DNA of 64,000 nt from a virus (Duplodnaviria > Heunggongvirae > Uroviricota > Caudoviricetes): the IMG/VR virus record IMGVR_UViG_3300046006_001304; one strand, 5' to 3'. Positions 42,376 through 60,810 of the stretch are shown here, one piece after another. The position numbers and the translations under genes were made by a program. Positions within the stretch are counted from its first letter, which is position 1. Each line of letters begins with the position of its first letter. The notes beneath the pieces were generated by a model that saw only the letters and a program-made list of their open reading frames with translations, had not been told where the DNA came from and did not search any database.

Positions 42376-43308
42376 TTGATGTACGCACATTATGGAATCA
42401 ACTACGATCCGACCAACTTTAAAATCTGGTATTCTCATTGCCAACGTCCGTCAGCTACGTGGACAGAGGAGATTAAAAAATCTGCTCAAATGTTAGCAGA
42501 CTCAACTGATCGAGATATATGGATATGTATGAGTGGCGGAATTGATAGCGAAGTTGTTGCTAAAACATTTAAAGATTTGGGAATACCATTTCGTGCGTTA
42601 ATAGCTCAGTTTCCAGACAAGTTAAACGAGCATGACATTGTGTATGCTCGTCGATGGTGCGAGTATCACAATGTTGAATATAAATTGTTTGACTTTGACA
42701 TGCTGAACTTTATAAAACAAGGCCACACTAAGTATCTTAAAGATGGACTAGTATCCAATAATATCTTTAGGTATTTTTGTATAGAGATGTTACAATGTAT
42801 TGAAGACATGAACGGTTTTGGAATACTAGGTGGAAAGAGTGTTGGACTTGGGCTATTACAAAAAGATAAAGATATTGTAGATCCCAACAATGATCCAATT
42901 TACGACAGTTATGATATTGGATCATTAGCACCAATAGAATGGTGCCGTAGAAACAATCTTAATCATTGTGTTTTCTTTTATCAAACAAGTTCAGAAATAC
43001 ACAAGGCTTACTTAAATGATCCTATCAATCAAATGTTAATCAATAATCCCTATATGTTGCGAGCTTCATCAGCTAACGAAGCCGCCAAGACATTAATGAT
43101 GAGATCACATTTTCCGTTTACTGTGCCAAGAACAAAGCATCATGGCTTTGAAAAAATTATGGGTATTAGGGAAGAAGCACAGAAAAATATGGCTAGGTAC
43201 TTTGGTCTTGATCCAGAGACTGATAACAAACGTTTTAAGTTTGTATTTTACAATGACCATATATCTATTCCCATAGGACACGTATTGGACCAATTACATT
43301 ATGAATAA
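42376..43308 (+). CDS. PP-loop ATP pyrophosphatase (adenine-nucleotide alpha-hydrolase superfamily) paralogue 1
   Basis: DIWICMSGGIDSEVVAK (SGGxDS P-loop-like motif). 310 aa, no glutaminase domain. Confidence 0.65.
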   Translation: MMYAHYGINYDPTNFKIWYSHCQRPSATWTEEIKKSAQMLADSTDRDIWICMSGGIDSEVVAKTFKDLGIPFRALIAQFPDKLNEHDIVYARRWCEYHNVEYKLFDFDMLNFIKQGHTKYLKDGLVSNNIFRYFCIEMLQCIEDMNGFGILGGKSVGLGLLQKDKDIVDPNNDPIYDSYDIGSLAPIEWCRRNNLNHCVFFYQTSSEIHKAYLNDPINQMLINNPYMLRASSANEAAKTLMMRSHFPFTVPRTKHHGFEKIMGIREEAQKNMARYFGLDPETDNKRFKFVFYNDHISIPIGHVLDQLHYE

Positions 43309-43948
43309 CCCTCAGATATTATTTGCGCTCAGTAGTTTCCATAGTTTTGATTCACGGCTATTGGTAATATCTGATCGTGTATCAATATTAGAATGGCTTC
43401 GAGAAACTATTCCAACATATGAGTTTAGAGTTACTACAAACTTGTTGCCAATGAATGGTTACACTAAAGAACTTACATATACTAATAGTCACCTTTATAA
43501 GACTATAGATCAGAATGTAATGTTACAGAGTAATGCTAACAGCGAGATTGTAGAAATGAGCAACTTATGCAGATCGTGGTACGAAGGTTATATTAAAATT
43601 AATAACACAATTAGTCATCAGCGCAAACATTTGGGCGCCATGTGGATGTTTTCCTTACAAGATGTAGTGTACCAAGAAAAAGTTAAAGAAGCAGAAAAAG
43701 TATTAAACAACCAAACGGAAGATTTGAAATTCCTTCCATCAGAAGCAGGTTATAAAAAGATGTCTCTTCGAGAGCTAGCCGACCGAGTATTAGTAGAACA
43801 CGAAATTGCGATGGGCTTCCTAGCAAGAACTGAACACTTGCGAGTCAAGTGGCTTGACACTTTGAAAGCATCAACTAGCATTGCTAAACACAAAGAGATC
43901 CTAGTAGGGTTTAATAGAGAATTATATGAATACCATCTCATGTCCTAA
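43301..43948 (+). CDS. Hypothetical protein (215 aa)
   Basis: Translationally coupled ORF inside the island. Confidence 0.45.
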   Translation: MNNPQILFALSSFHSFDSRLLVISDRVSILEWLRETIPTYEFRVTTNLLPMNGYTKELTYTNSHLYKTIDQNVMLQSNANSEIVEMSNLCRSWYEGYIKINNTISHQRKHLGAMWMFSLQDVVYQEKVKEAEKVLNNQTEDLKFLPSEAGYKKMSLRELADRVLVEHEIAMGFLARTEHLRVKWLDTLKASTSIAKHKEILVGFNRELYEYHLMS

Positions 43949-45050
43949 TATTTTATTGTTTAACAGTATTGTAGCCGAGGAACAGTTTAGAGGGTTGCCC
44001 GGGGTACATCAGTGGTCTAAGACTAGAAAAATTTGGGGGCATAACGGCTCTATGATTGATCGCACTGGTGTAGTACAGTTGCCGTTTAAAACAGAATTTT
44101 TAGATTCTATGCGGATTCCAGACATCCCTCAGAATTTTTCAAAAACATTAGAACAATGTTGTGTTGAACACGCACGGACAATAGTCGACCAAGCAGTGGG
44201 TACAGATCAAACAATTTCTATACTATGGTCCGGCGGCATTGATTCTACATGTGCGGTGTCTAGTTTCTTAATGTGTACTACTGCCCAAGAACGCACCCGT
44301 ATCACAATCTTACTTAACAGAGAAAGCATTCTTGAAAATACTAAGTTTTATCAAACACACTTGGTAGGGAAATTAAATTGTAAAAGTAGCAACACTTGGG
44401 AATCATATATACGTCCAAATAACATATTTGTCACAGGTGAAGGTGGCGACCAGGTCTGCTGGAACGGGTTTACTAGAGCATCGGATACTATATTCAATGT
44501 ACTAGGATGGGATACGCTTAAACAGTTTGCCAGTGCCGACTTAATGATCAAGGTACTTGAAATGGTAAGCCTTGATAAAGAGTCGGCAACTATAGGGTAT
44601 GAGCGTGTGCTTGAACCCCTAAGGCAAAACTCAGTTGTTCCTGTAAATACAGTCGGCCAGCTATTATGGTATTTTAACTTTGCCGCTAAATGGCAAAACG
44701 TGTATCTTAGAACACTGCTAAACTTAGTAGACAACTCTGTCATAACTGATAACTATATAGCAACGAATTTTAAAATGTTTTTCCAAAGCAGTGATATACA
44801 AATTTGGACTATGTTAAACAATGAAAGCACAGTGTTAGTTAACAAGTTTACAGACATCAAGATGCCGTTAAAGCAAGTAACATATCAGTATGATAAAGAT
44901 GAATACTACAGAGAGCATAAAGTAAAAATTGGAAGTCTAGGACGATTATCACGTATGCGTCCTAATATAGGGTATTTAAAATCTAACTGGGAGTTTTCTC
45001 CAACAGTTGATATTGACCAGTATTACAATAACCAGAATAGTTTTATTTGA
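43926..45050 (+). CDS. PP-loop ATP pyrophosphatase paralogue 2
   Basis: ISILWSGGIDSTCAVSSF. Confidence 0.6.
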   Translation: MNTISCPNILLFNSIVAEEQFRGLPGVHQWSKTRKIWGHNGSMIDRTGVVQLPFKTEFLDSMRIPDIPQNFSKTLEQCCVEHARTIVDQAVGTDQTISILWSGGIDSTCAVSSFLMCTTAQERTRITILLNRESILENTKFYQTHLVGKLNCKSSNTWESYIRPNNIFVTGEGGDQVCWNGFTRASDTIFNVLGWDTLKQFASADLMIKVLEMVSLDKESATIGYERVLEPLRQNSVVPVNTVGQLLWYFNFAAKWQNVYLRTLLNLVDNSVITDNYIATNFKMFFQSSDIQIWTMLNNESTVLVNKFTDIKMPLKQVTYQYDKDEYYREHKVKIGSLGRLSRMRPNIGYLKSNWEFSPTVDIDQYYNNQNSFI

Positions 45051-59544: not shown

Positions 59545-60086
59545 ATTTATTAATCACTCCTGATAATCAAGGACCCTGGGCTGTACGTTACCTAAGTGTA
59601 CAGCACAGATTTGATAATACCTCTTTTTATAATAACTATTTTTCACCTAGTTTAAAAGAAGCAGGAATGAACATTAGGAAACAAACAGCTGATCTTAAAA
59701 CAGACTGGTCTGCGCATAATCAAATATTTTATGATTCGGCAGCTGACGGAAATCTAGTATGGCGTGTAAAAGTTGGAAATAAAGAAACACGTAGTATTGA
59801 CTACGTTGAAGTGTGGCGTAGTGTTAATGTTTTAAATCAGTATTTTGGAAAACAGACCGATATGCCTAATTGGACAACAGCCAGTAGAAAAACATTCAAT
59901 GAACAGCTATTTGAAAGTGGATTTATTATATCAGACTTACAAGAATTCCCGTTAATATCAAAAAAACAAGCAATTGAGTATTACAGAATTTTTGTAGACA
60001 AATGGAAGTCTAAAGACGACTGTATCATTAATACTCCCTGGAACAAAGAACTTAACCCATTAGATCCTGTCGAACATCAGGTTTAA
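59541..60086 (+). CDS. Hypothetical protein (181 aa)
   Basis: Translationally coupled ORF. Confidence 0.45.
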   Translation: MNLLITPDNQGPWAVRYLSVQHRFDNTSFYNNYFSPSLKEAGMNIRKQTADLKTDWSAHNQIFYDSAADGNLVWRVKVGNKETRSIDYVEVWRSVNVLNQYFGKQTDMPNWTTASRKTFNEQLFESGFIISDLQEFPLISKKQAIEYYRIFVDKWKSKDDCIINTPWNKELNPLDPVEHQV

Positions 60087-60810
60087 ATTTTCCATCGATA
60101 CGGATAGAAAAACTGAAATGCTTAACGCATTCAGTTCCGTGAAAATCCATTTCGTTAAACCAAACAAACTTTTTACTAGGATCCGGGTATACTCGTTCTA
60201 AGCTAGTTCCATCCATCACATAGACAGATTTAGATTCTTGTTTAGTTGTGAACCAAATAAAATCATCATTGGGTTTTTGTTTGCGTTGTTCCTCAGTAAG
60301 GACATCGTAATGCGGTACTGTAGAATTATTTGCTTCAGTCATAAAGAATATAACTCGACCTATACTTTCAAACGGTAGTGTTTCTATAAATTTGACTAGA
60401 CTAGGAAAATGTTTAGCATTTTCAGTCCAAGCGCAATCCTTGGCTACTGCTTTATTAAACACTCCCGTTGCTTCAACCCGTTTATTGTTTCTAAGAAATA
60501 TTAACCAAAAAGGATGTGGGTTGTATGTTAACGCATTAAGATATTTTATTTTTTCATCAGTTGTAGTTAAGGTACGAAATGTTTCTAACTGTAGGGGTGT
60601 TAGTCTATTTTCTACATCAAGTACAATAGTAGTTATTTCTTGTTCGGCCCAATTAGTGTGGACCCCGCTAGAAACAAAACGCTTGCTCCATTCTGCTCGT
60701 GCTATACCTAAACATACTTCGTTATGTAACTGATCCCAATCAGGGGCTGTAACATAGTTGTCTAAGTATTTAAATGGAGTATTATTAGAATCTAGTCCGA
60801 TGATTGGCAT
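60052..60810 (-). CDS. AspH-like cupin Fe(II)/2OG hydroxylase
   Basis: TVPHYDV...DFIWF...VYVMDGTSLERVYPDPSKKFVWFNEMDFHGTECV in AspH motif order. Confidence 0.55.
   Translation of the reverse strand: MPIIGLDSNNTPFKYLDNYVTAPDWDQLHNEVCLGIARAEWSKRFVSSGVHTNWAEQEITTIVLDVENRLTPLQLETFRTLTTTDEKIKYLNALTYNPHPFWLIFLRNNKRVEATGVFNKAVAKDCAWTENAKHFPSLVKFIETLPFESIGRVIFFMTEANNSTVPHYDVLTEEQRKQKPNDDFIWFTTKQESKSVYVMDGTSLERVYPDPSKKFVWFNEMDFHGTECVKHFSFSIRIDGKFKPDVRQDLMG

Follow-up and report, generated by a model that had tools for sequence, protein, structure and literature searches.

A phage enzyme island built around undescribed PP-loop synthetase families and its recurrence in uncultured aquatic phages

Layout of the island and its PP-loop synthetases

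The window analyzed here is a 64,000-nucleotide stretch of DNA from a virus of the Caudoviricetes (IMG/VR record IMGVR_UViG_3300046006_001304), a large uncultured aquatic phage that carries a block of about 20 kb and about 25 genes for enzymes, transporter-like proteins and a binding protein. Positions 42376-60810 of this block, which we call the island, hold 22 tightly packed genes. The island is real and beyond chance, and it is best explained as a single instance of an accessory module, mosaic in composition, that recurs within a lineage of large uncultured phages from aquatic habitats, with contigs of up to about 350 kb. The genes of the island and its immediate edges are given below; where two bit scores are given, the second is the cut-off (aa, amino acids; TM, transmembrane; rSAM, radical S-adenosylmethionine enzyme; Fe/2OG, iron- and 2-oxoglutarate-dependent; HMM, hidden Markov model; AF2 pLDDT, AlphaFold2 predicted local distance difference test).

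40126..40980 (+), TauD/TfdA Fe/2OG dioxygenase; Pfam TauD 2.6e-29, 103 bits vs 27; clusters with 58669
40977..42335 (-), membrane protein of 452 aa with about 12 TM segments (11-13 hydrophobic segments), SSS-like; phrog_20720 4.5e-20
42376..43308 (+), PPa-1, stand-alone AsnB-type synthetase domain; SGGIDS; weak QueC, Asn_synthase and NadE matches
43301..43948 (+), 215-aa protein; no Pfam or PHROG match; clustering singleton
43926..45050 (+), PPc; SGGIDS; hhalign to PPb 91.7% and to PPa 88% (P-loop region only); family in 7 of 46 related loci
45047..46492 (+), predicted class-B (B12-binding) rSAM 1; Pfam Radical_SAM 3.5e-9; CIFKCKFC
46489..47604 (-), PPb-1; SGGADS; 28% identical to 51815; hhalign to PPa 93.6%; the PPb HMM cross-matches PPa
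47607..47912 (-), predicted ABM/Dabb-fold protein, 101 aa, partner of PPb; AF2 pLDDT 96
47944..49386 (-), predicted class-B (B12-binding) rSAM 2; Pfam Radical_SAM 1e-9; CIFKCKFC; 32% identical to 45047
49352..49981 (-), AspH-like cupin, probable Fe/2OG oxygenase; conserved H92, D94, H153 and R163
49983..50966 (-), TctC-family periplasmic solute-binding protein; Pfam TctC 2.3e-19, 70 bits vs 27
50976..51818 (+), NMO/FabK-like FMN TIM-barrel oxidoreductase; Pfam NMO 4.3e-11, 43 bits vs 28
51815..52969 (+), PPb-2; SGGADS
52962..53396 (-), small membrane protein, DUF2061; Pfam DUF2061 3.8e-24
53441..54277 (+), predicted Rieske nonheme iron oxygenase; convergent with PPa-2 and overlapping its end
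54255..55184 (-), PPa-2, the anchor for all comparisons
55168..55749 (-), GNAT-fold acyltransferase; hhalign 97.2% to family f12, which has a member above the gathering score of Pfam Acetyltransf_1
55737..56597 (+), DesC/SCD-type membrane di-iron desaturase; likely start 55773
56542..57486 (+), PPa-3, directly downstream of the desaturase; SGGTDS; QueC 1.4e-4
57483..58070 (+), conserved 195-aa protein, family f16; no Pfam or PDB match; no conserved His
58067..58672 (+), AspH-like Fe/2OG hydroxylase; Pfam Asp_Arg_Hydrox 27 bits vs 22.6; H133, D135, H181 and R191
58669..59544 (+), TauD/TfdA Fe/2OG dioxygenase; Pfam TauD 1.4e-16; best PDB match TfdA (5e-4); weak ScoE match
59541..60086 (+), conserved 181-aa protein; no family match; one conserved His, no HxD...H triad
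60052..60810 (-), probable Fe/2OG-type cupin oxygenase; invariant H167, D169, H224 and R237
60845..60862, GC-rich hairpin with a trailing T-run; resembles a terminator on either strand; marks the right edge of the island

The defining feature of the island is its set of PP-loop enzymes. Six SGGxDS motifs occur in the six reading frames of the whole window, at positions 42532, 44229, 47376, 52046, 54986 and 56776, and all lie inside the island; 200 shuffled sequences gave 0.05 motifs on average and at most 2. The six paralogs that had been recognized from this motif are confirmed, and they form three related subfamilies. BLASTP groups 42376, 54255 and 56542 as PPa and 46489 and 51815 as PPb, with 43926 as PPc, and the subfamilies are linked to each other by HMM cross-matches and by hhalign, which gives 88-94% across the P-loop region. 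The proteins are 300-385 aa long and mildly acidic (pI 5.5-6.7). Their pyrophosphate loop (SGGxDS/T) starts at residues 53-102 and lies where the first strand of a Rossmann-like fold ends, as in the PP-loop superfamily, and they extend past the minimal PP-loop core with the architecture of the AsnB synthetase domain. The N-terminal Ntn-type glutaminase domain of AsnB is not present. The structure of PPa-2 was predicted with a pLDDT of 94; its translation probably begins at 55184 and not at the TTG codon of 55244, because homologs are 309 aa long.

The PPa fold is AsnB-type and not QueC-, TilS- or MnmA-type. Curated AsnB models are not reached (Pfam Asn_synthase, 18 bits vs a cut-off of 21; NCBIfam asn_synth_AEB, 15.6 vs 267). 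Matches to QueC also fall below the HMM cut-off, and the C-terminal Zn-binding Cys cluster of that enzyme is lacking. A single Cys is conserved in PPa, which indicates that there is no Fe-S or Zn site; the different fold and the single conserved Cys led us to reject QueC and Fe-S thiolases as identities for these proteins. The chemistry of PPa would be adenylation of a carboxylate followed by attack of ammonia or an amine.

The open reading frame (ORF) listing agrees with the description of the island as close-packed, overlapping genes in operons of alternating strand: neighbors overlap by 4 to about 35 nt or are separated by gaps of at most 44 nt. There are five multi-gene operons, each containing a PP-loop synthetase (42376-60086), and the Rieske, DUF2061 and 60052 genes are single-gene units.

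Operon 1 (+), PPa-1, the 215-aa protein 43301, PPc and B12-rSAM
Operon 2 (-), TctC, AspH-like, B12-rSAM, ABM and PPb-1
Operon 3 (+), NMO and PPb-2
Operon 4 (-), GNAT and PPa-2
Operon 5 (+), desaturase, PPa-3, the 195-aa protein 57483, AspH, TauD and the 181-aa protein 59541

Within the six-gene operon 5 (55737-60086), 4-nt start/stop overlaps suggest translational coupling. A promoter scan returned 78 sites vs 71 in the shuffled expectation, not above background. No ORF in the range matched a structural, replication or lysis PHROG, in agreement with the initial annotation, which had noted no virion, replication or lysis gene in the island, and 20 island ORFs compared with PHROGs gave almost no matches at all.

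Recurrence in uncultured phages

The PPa family is large, with 1387 clusters at 50% identity in an exhaustive HMMER search, 768 of them at E <=1e-10. PPa-2 has 202 metagenomic homologs. For PPb there are 795 metagenomic homologs, on contigs of up to 352 kb, of which 0 carry any Pfam domain. Neither the island DNA nor PPa or PPb matched anything in 50,697 cultured-phage records searched at the DNA and protein levels. The PPa, PPb and ABM families were met in the context of the island only.

Related loci were collected with an alignment of 42 PPa-2 homologs as the query, which found 24 in IMG/VR, 8 in genome collections and 79 in metagenomes; most of them lie on JGI metagenome contigs and several on marine ones (ENA marine, TARA). 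ORFs were called, proteins were clustered by BLASTP and loci were de-replicated; the main counts refer to 46 non-redundant loci of at least 10 kb anchored on PPa-2. The island families are distributed among them as follows.

Desaturase, 30/46 loci (67 copies, up to about 10 per locus)
PPb, 28/46 loci
B12-rSAM, 22/46 loci
Rieske, 18/46 loci
TctC, 18/46 loci
rSAM3, 13/46 loci
DUF2061, 12/46 loci
N-twitch rSAM, 12/46 loci
AspH f26, 6/46 loci
TauD, 5/46 loci

Particular gene pairs persist among highly diverged proteins. In 15 loci the desaturase immediately precedes PPa on the same strand, with a median pairwise PPa identity of 30%, PPa is convergent with the Rieske gene in 20 loci (median identity 49%), and an ABM protein of about 100 aa adjoins PPb in 17 loci (33%). 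Two outcomes that would have spoken against the initial annotation, scattering of the genes in related genomes and assignment of the ORFs to nonenzymatic families, were not obtained: the genes are co-localized, with adjacencies kept at 30-49% median protein identity, and the families to which the ORFs were assigned by profile and fold searches are enzymatic. The proposed co-occurrence of PP-loop, B12-rSAM and AspH genes does not describe a conserved core, since AspH f26 is present in just six of the loci.

Composition, copy number and gene order are mosaic across loci. The binding protein of locus L002 is DctP in place of TctC. An S-adenosylmethionine decarboxylase is found in 6/82 related loci and a fatty acid hydroxylase (FA_hydroxylase, PF04116) in 6/82; L098:2179-2799, L123:16107-16475 and L123:13578-14030 are examples of genes added in relatives. 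The 20.9-kb locus L085 (JGI Ga0164294_10000234) has about 10 desaturase paralogs beside one PPa-Rieske pair, so that in this phage contig a membrane di-iron enzyme is expanded to an extreme degree.

Mtd_N or tail-fiber genes stand beside homologous islands in L002, in L123 and in Pelagibacter phage Mosig, and the Mtd family is present in 5/82 non-redundant loci. Five of the eight genome-collection contigs were binned as Bdellovibrio or Bdellovibrionales metagenome-assembled genomes, and these have the same enzyme families together with a diversity-generating retroelement (DGR) target gene (GTDB genome contigs L034-L038 and L041). They look viral, and the binning is either a clue to the host or the result of mis-binned phage contigs. 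The recurrence of the same block in many related uncultured phages indicates that it probably acts as a single chemical-tailoring module.

Iron enzymes, accessory proteins and flanking genes

The two rSAM enzymes of the island had been annotated as cobalamin-type. Pfam Radical_SAM is above its cut-off in both, and three observations agree with the annotation: both have CIFKCKFC, which fits the CX3CX2C rSAM core, their best NCBIfam matches are all to B12-binding class-B families (PhpK, HpnJ and the ladderane-lipid B12 rSAM), and a relative in L123 (family HMM E 7e-149) has the Pfam B12-binding domain PF02310. The NCBIfam alignments begin at residues 19-24 and lie far below the cut-offs. On this evidence 45047 and 47944 are predicted to be cobalamin-binding class-B rSAM enzymes. 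No specific class-B subfamily among PhpK, HpnJ and the C-methyltransferases of ribosomally synthesized and post-translationally modified peptides (RiPPs) passed its cut-off, the best being PhpK with 65 bits vs 600. An exact-protein look-up and a single-sequence viral scan returned nothing for the B12-rSAM, probably owing to its TTG-start N terminus.

More rSAM genes lie upstream of the island, in a minus-strand block at 17559-25406 that consists of two N-twitch rSAMs, an 813-aa rSAM fusion, an AspH-like gene and two ORFs without assignment.

18807..19976 (-), N-terminal-twitch rSAM; NCBIfam NF033640, 210 bits vs a cut-off of 170
19963..22404 (-), rSAM3, 813 aa, C-terminal rSAM domain (Pfam Radical_SAM 1.8e-14 at residues 614-740), about 600 N-terminal residues without assignment
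22401..23069 (-), AspH-like Fe/2OG hydroxylase; Pfam Asp_Arg_Hydrox 8.7e-11
24102..25406 (-), N-terminal-twitch/SPASM rSAM; NF033640, 362 bits vs 170; Pfam SPASM at residues 24-88

In both 18807 and 24102 the twitch domain is N-terminal to the rSAM core. The families of this block are contiguous with the 60052/TauD/AspH block in the relatives L010 and L015-L018, and that of 18807 lies beside it there; in the window the upstream block and the island are separated by a DNA ligase and other phage genes. The limits of 42376-60810 given in the initial annotation are thus too narrow: on the left, the TauD gene 40126 and the 12-TM protein adjoin the island, and the upstream block is a second part.

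Seven Fe/2OG oxygenases had been counted within 42376-60810, and only four are supported. The proteins 58067, 49352 and 60052 have a conserved HxD...H...R triad, and 58669 is a TauD protein by HMM. Two more lie outside the range, namely the flanking TauD 40126 as the fifth and 22401 as the sixth. Family cut-offs are passed by 58067 (AspH Pfam) and by 58669 and 40126 (TauD Pfam). Three other candidates were rejected, 55168 because it is GNAT-like and 57483 and 59541 because the triad is not present. For 49352 and 60052 neither Pfam nor the PDB gave a sequence match, and their link to AspH is a chain of remote hhalign relationships: 49352 matches families f14 and f38 at 96-97% and the Pfam-positive AspH-like 22401 at 70%, with its family HMM also matching Mosig proteins annotated Asp_Arg_Hydrox, and 60052 matches f10 at 93% and 22401 at 63%. 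Both are probable Fe/2OG oxygenases. The links to the cupins and to GNAT were missed by hhalign with shallow alignments and were revealed by deeper ones. PDB sequence-profile searches for 60052, 57483 and 55168 gave nothing usable, and a mixed-family Pfam scan of the ORFs of about 190 aa gave only weak AspH and methyltransferase hints.

The Rieske oxygenase, SCD-type desaturase, NMO/FabK-like flavoenzyme and TctC binding protein of the initial annotation all hold, with scores above Pfam gathering thresholds, and DUF2061 likewise exceeds its threshold. The 53441 protein has a CPH-x17-CKFH motif of the CxH...CxxH [2Fe-2S] type and passes both Rieske (29.8 vs 20.3) and Ring_hydroxyl_A (28.5 vs 24.9), the latter being the catalytic domain, so that it is predicted to be a Rieske oxygenase alpha subunit. 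The desaturase (Pfam FA_desaturase 2.3e-16, 60.8 bits vs a cut-off of 29.7) has 3-4 TM segments and the His boxes HRYVSH, HRGSHH and GWHNNHH (HX4H, HX3HH and HX2HH) of a delta-9 DesC/SCD-type enzyme; with NCBIfam DesA_fam it scores 56 bits vs a cut-off of 400. Its identity to cultured-phage proteins is about 28-30%, and such matches are only to Mosig and one mislabeled bacterial record. The latter, "Acinetobacter phage MD-2021a" (L125, CAKLQH020000002.1), was set aside as a bacterial chromosome contig; its desaturase is surrounded by trp genes, btuB, baeSR, accD and cardiolipin synthase, and the record looks mislabeled as phage. The NMO protein matches NCBIfam FabK at 1.8e-10, under the cut-off of that model.

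The 101-aa protein 47607 had been offered as a possible substrate of the pathway. Its model is a folded ABM/Dabb barrel with the ferredoxin-like beta-alpha-beta-beta-alpha-beta topology of that superfamily and more than 100 Foldseek matches in the PDB at E <=1e-3, the top ones being ABM monooxygenases and SnoaB (TM-score 0.62-0.67, E 2e-6), and the gene is a conserved partner of PPb. We therefore rejected it as a precursor or carrier peptide. It is homologous to family f13 (hhalign 97.3%), sequence-level support for ABM is weak, and some of its homologs are labeled HmoA by JGI; an identical copy is present on 28 contigs, the longest of 275,918 bp. The model predicts an ABM-type enzyme or ligand-binding partner of PPb.

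The TctC protein has a signal peptide-like N terminus with a hydrophobic segment at residues 26-44. Its partners TctA and TctB, the membrane subunits of the tripartite tricarboxylate transporter, had no Pfam match in the ORFs that were scanned. For the 452-aa membrane protein Pfam gave no match, and in the PDB it weakly resembles DUR3, a urea-proton symporter (E 1.7e-4); it is located inside the module in L017 and L018. The scarce literature naming DUF2061 concerns mostly iron, Fur or metal regulons. Nearly all enzyme classes of the island are iron-dependent, and the tie to this literature is possibly a coincidence. The f16 protein 57483 is related to f15 (hhalign 98.5%) and lies downstream of PPa in 10 loci.

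Genes typical of phages flank the enzyme blocks, among them a DNA ligase (phrog_114, 1e-92), an endonuclease (1e-80) and the following.

1469-12691 (-), fiber-like ORF of 3740 aa, Thr/Gly/Ser/Val-rich
16063-17514 (-), tail-fiber-like protein of 483 aa, beside the upstream enzyme block
61241-62719 (-), DUF2828/DUF7788 protein, previously described as Ro60-like; phrog_850 "RNA-binding protein", 4e-141

The DUF2828/DUF7788 family is present in 711 cultured phage records, and the protein of the window is 42-47% identical to genes of many cultured large phages. Adjoining it is a Cys-rich ORF of 66 aa (60866-61066, -) that by eye only has the look of a TraR/DksA-type zinc finger. Three tRNA genes lie within 63233-63780, with Val-TAC and Arg-CCT identified by ARAGORN and a third at 63233-63306 by Rfam; an 85-aa ORF between two of them (63393-63650, -) matches RNA_pol_Rpb6/omega (Pfam 4e-9). 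Other genes in the window are an Fe/Mn superoxide dismutase, a Bax1-I/YccA-like membrane protein (Pfam 1e-54) and a MazG-like PRA-PH pyrophosphohydrolase (13309-13869, 26272-26967 and 26969-27340).

Candidate function and relation to known systems

The island had been interpreted as a multi-step tailoring pathway. Neighborhood conservation and the assignment of enzyme families support this interpretation in general, and the AspH-containing triad as its core and the number of 2OG oxygenases have to be given up. We favor a scheme of oxidative tailoring and ATP-dependent amidation of an imported or membrane-bound, carboxylated and probably lipid-like small molecule, with a probability of roughly 0.42. 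The substrate predicted by this scheme would be imported or would reside in the host membrane, would bear a carboxyl group and would be tailored stepwise along a single pathway. The TctC periplasmic protein and the SSS-like transporter would capture or import an organic acid. C-H functionalization would be performed by the desaturase, the AspH- and TauD-like 2OG oxygenases, the Rieske oxygenase and the B12- and twitch-type rSAMs, with the FabK/NMO-like flavoenzyme and the ABM-fold protein assisting the iron enzymes. The six AsnB-type PP-loop enzymes would adenylate carboxylates to form amides or lactams; the nitrogen would come from ammonia or an amine, because these enzymes have no glutaminase domain, and the GNAT protein would acylate an amine. 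Each of about five short operons would bring together a PP-loop enzyme and at least one oxidoreductase.

A small-molecule or membrane substrate is favored for four reasons. A binding protein (TctC, or DctP in L002) is present together with a transporter-like protein; membrane di-iron enzymes are often multi-copy, and relatives have FA_hydroxylase PF04116; the fold of the PPb partner is one usual in enzymes that act on small molecules; and there is no room in the island for a precursor gene. Our best guess at the class of substrate is a hydrophobic, fatty-acyl or aminolipid-like compound, because the weak best matches point to lipid-acting relatives (FabK, DesA/DesC, ScoE, SdmA, HpnJ and the ladderane-lipid B12 rSAM) and because ornithine lipids and lipid A are tailored by enzymes of the GNAT, AspH and FA_hydroxylase families.

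Several considerations weigh against this scheme. The lipid-leaning matches are all far under curated cut-offs, and no lipid pathway known to us uses a PP-loop or AsnB-type enzyme. The window yielded no substrate-defining enzyme such as an acyl carrier, acyl-CoA ligase, glycosyltransferase or head-group enzyme, and three conserved ORFs have no fold assignment of any kind. Twitch/SPASM rSAM, B12-rSAM and AspH-like enzymes are also typical of peptide modification, and homologous islands often adjoin tail-fiber or Mtd genes. Finally, copy number and gene order vary widely and strands alternate, as in hyperplastic accessory regions.

This last point leads to the best surviving alternative, which we nevertheless consider unlikely: the island would be a hyperplastic accessory region in which independent auxiliary metabolic genes (AMGs) have accumulated in a permissive part of the genome, each acting separately on host metabolism or nutrient scavenging without a common substrate, like the 2OG-oxygenase-rich regions of T4-like cyanophages and pelagiphages. 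The mosaic content, copy number and order, the short units of alternating strand, the occurrence of only subsets of the families in Pelagibacter phage Mosig, and the division of the module in the window into two blocks with a ligase and other phage genes between them all fit such a region. In addition, reports of 2OG oxygenases as putative AMGs that stand alone are widespread (PMC11561400), and a phage desaturase is known as a single AMG (PMC5776448). However, independent genes would not be expected to retain specific partners at 30-49% median identity, to place a PP-loop gene in each multi-gene operon, or to show the 4-nt start/stop overlaps suggestive of translational coupling in operon 55737-60086, and the PPa, PPb and ABM families were encountered solely in the island context and in none of the cultured phages searched.

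Somewhat less likely still is modification of a protein or peptide, with phage fiber or receptor-binding proteins or a RiPP-like product as the likeliest targets and hydroxylation, C-methylation, cross-linking, amidation or lactam formation, and acetylation as the chemistry. The two N-twitch/SPASM rSAMs have secondary matches to sactipeptide, ranthipeptide and cyclophane maturases, the B12-rSAMs weakly match RiPP C-methyltransferases and ApyD, AspH-like enzymes are part of the module, and the AsnB fold is shared by lasso-peptide cyclases. The genomic setting is suggestive as well, with the upstream block adjoining the tail-fiber-like gene and the 3740-aa fiber-like ORF, and with the Mtd_N or tail-fiber genes that flank the islands in L002, L123 and Mosig. 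What argues against a peptide is that a RiPP cluster has a precursor gene beside its maturases, and here, with gaps of at most 44 nt, no precursor-sized ORF fits in the island, whose sole small conserved ORF, 47607, is a folded ABM barrel. The integral-membrane desaturases, the periplasmic binding protein and the transporter would have no role, and the Mtd family is confined to the few loci noted above. The 3740-aa ORF lacks collagen-like repeats and EGF/AspH consensus motifs and was rejected as an AspH substrate.

Nucleic acid modification, in which the PP-loop and rSAM enzymes would make or decorate a modified base such as a 7-deazaguanine derivative in phage DNA or tRNA, is very improbable: PPa proteins weakly match QueC, TilS and MnmA, the rSAMs are weakly QueE-like, genuine QueC (PF06508 above cut-off) is present in 7/46 related loci and tRNA genes and the Ro60-like gene adjoin the island, but the PPa fold is of another type, a conserved Cys cluster is lacking in PPa, the pI of the PP-loop proteins is acidic, membrane and periplasmic components have no place in such a pathway, and neither the enzymes of the 7-deazaguanine DNA pathway (FolE, QueD, QueE, QueC and the DpdA/TGT transglycosylase) nor a DNA-binding protein was detected by Pfam and NCBIfam in the subset of window ORFs scanned.

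Returning to the tailoring of a small molecule, the nearest biochemical parallels are found in lipid and antibiotic pathways. Tailoring of aminolipids and lipid A uses the GNAT-like N-acyltransferase OlsB, the AspH-family hydroxylases OlsC and LpxO, and OlsE of the FA_hydroxylase family. The same superfamilies (GNAT, Asp_Arg_Hydrox and, in relatives, FA_hydroxylase PF04116) co-occur in the module with membrane desaturases, a likeness at the superfamily level. The AspH-like proteins of the island are short (about 200 aa) and have no TM segment, unlike the aminolipid and lipid A enzymes, and we know of no PP-loop or rSAM step in those pathways. The carbapenem, thienamycin and clavam clusters contain CarA/ThnM or beta-lactam synthetase (beta-LS), CarC/ThnG/ThnQ or CAS, the B12-rSAMs ThnK, ThnL and ThnP, and the GNAT protein ThnF. 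They share with the island the combination of an AsnB-type synthetase, TauD/CAS-like and other 2OG oxygenases, B12-rSAM and GNAT, whereas the desaturase, Rieske, TctC and ABM proteins are foreign to them. Membership in such a pathway was rejected, since no CarB/ThnE crotonase, CEAS or ThDP-enzyme Pfam match was found among the ORFs; the likeness is a toolkit resemblance only.

In comparison with AsnB, beta-LS, CarA and TsnB9, the PP-loop proteins are stand-alone enzymes of about 300-385 aa without a glutaminase domain, at 9-12% identity, and PPa is no nearer to beta-LS or CarA than to AsnB. Relative to the AsnB family as a whole they represent three divergent subfamilies in six copies, which remain under every curated HMM cut-off; PPb has no Pfam match.

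Among phages, 2OG oxygenases are a recognized yet unexplained class of marine AMGs (PMC11561400), and the DesC-like desaturases of cyanophages (vFADs) were shown experimentally to be active on C16 acyl chains (PMC5776448). The vFADs and the island desaturase are both phage delta-9-type membrane desaturases with three His boxes. The vFADs are single AMGs in cyanomyophages (PMC5776448), whereas the island desaturase belongs to a multi-copy family that reaches about 10 members in one locus and has a PP-loop gene coupled to it downstream.

We found no description of the module in the literature searched. The initial annotation had stated that no phage system of this composition was known; this stands for the part composed of PP-loop, B12-rSAM, Rieske and TctC genes, but for the remainder there is a partial analog in a cultured phage. 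The closest real relative is the accessory region of Pelagibacter phage Mosig EXVC030M (MT647606, Kyanoviridae), which is unremarked in the literature. Mosig shares FA_desaturase (family HMM 3e-46), an rSAM (3e-41) and a methyltransferase family of the related loci (1e-30), as well as the rSAM3, TauD, GNAT and AspH-like families, and its region is likewise tightly packed in alternating operons beside tail-fiber genes. It lacks the PP-loop synthetases, B12-rSAM, Rieske, TctC, the ABM partner and DUF2061, and it has aminotransferases, a carbamoyltransferase and nitroreductases, none of which are present in the island.

A bolder and more specific form of the favored scheme, which is doubtful in its entirety, would be a lineage-wide phage system for biosynthesis or remodeling that takes up an organic acid with binding and transport proteins of the phage and converts it into a lipid-like metabolite or an envelope lipid that is heavily oxidized, methylated and amidated at several sites or contains a lactam. 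It would use two undescribed families of stand-alone AsnB-type synthetases, PPa and PPb, each with a dedicated partner (membrane desaturase, Rieske or ABM). If a lipid or metabolite were indeed made or remodeled during infection, this would amount to virus-encoded chemistry that is new and ecological in scale; were virion proteins or nucleic acids the target instead, the module would be a new modification system. The desaturase-PPa, ABM-PPb and PPa-Rieske pairs offer testable units, and the ligand of TctC would name the substrate. Phage accessory regions with many 2OG oxygenases and desaturases are common in lakes and oceans, with essentially no explanation of what they do. The island shows that, in one widespread lineage, these genes do not occur as loose singletons but belong to a conserved module around PPa and PPb. 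Accessory enzyme islands are already known from phages; what distinguishes this one from them is its two large and undescribed families of amide synthetases with fixed partners.

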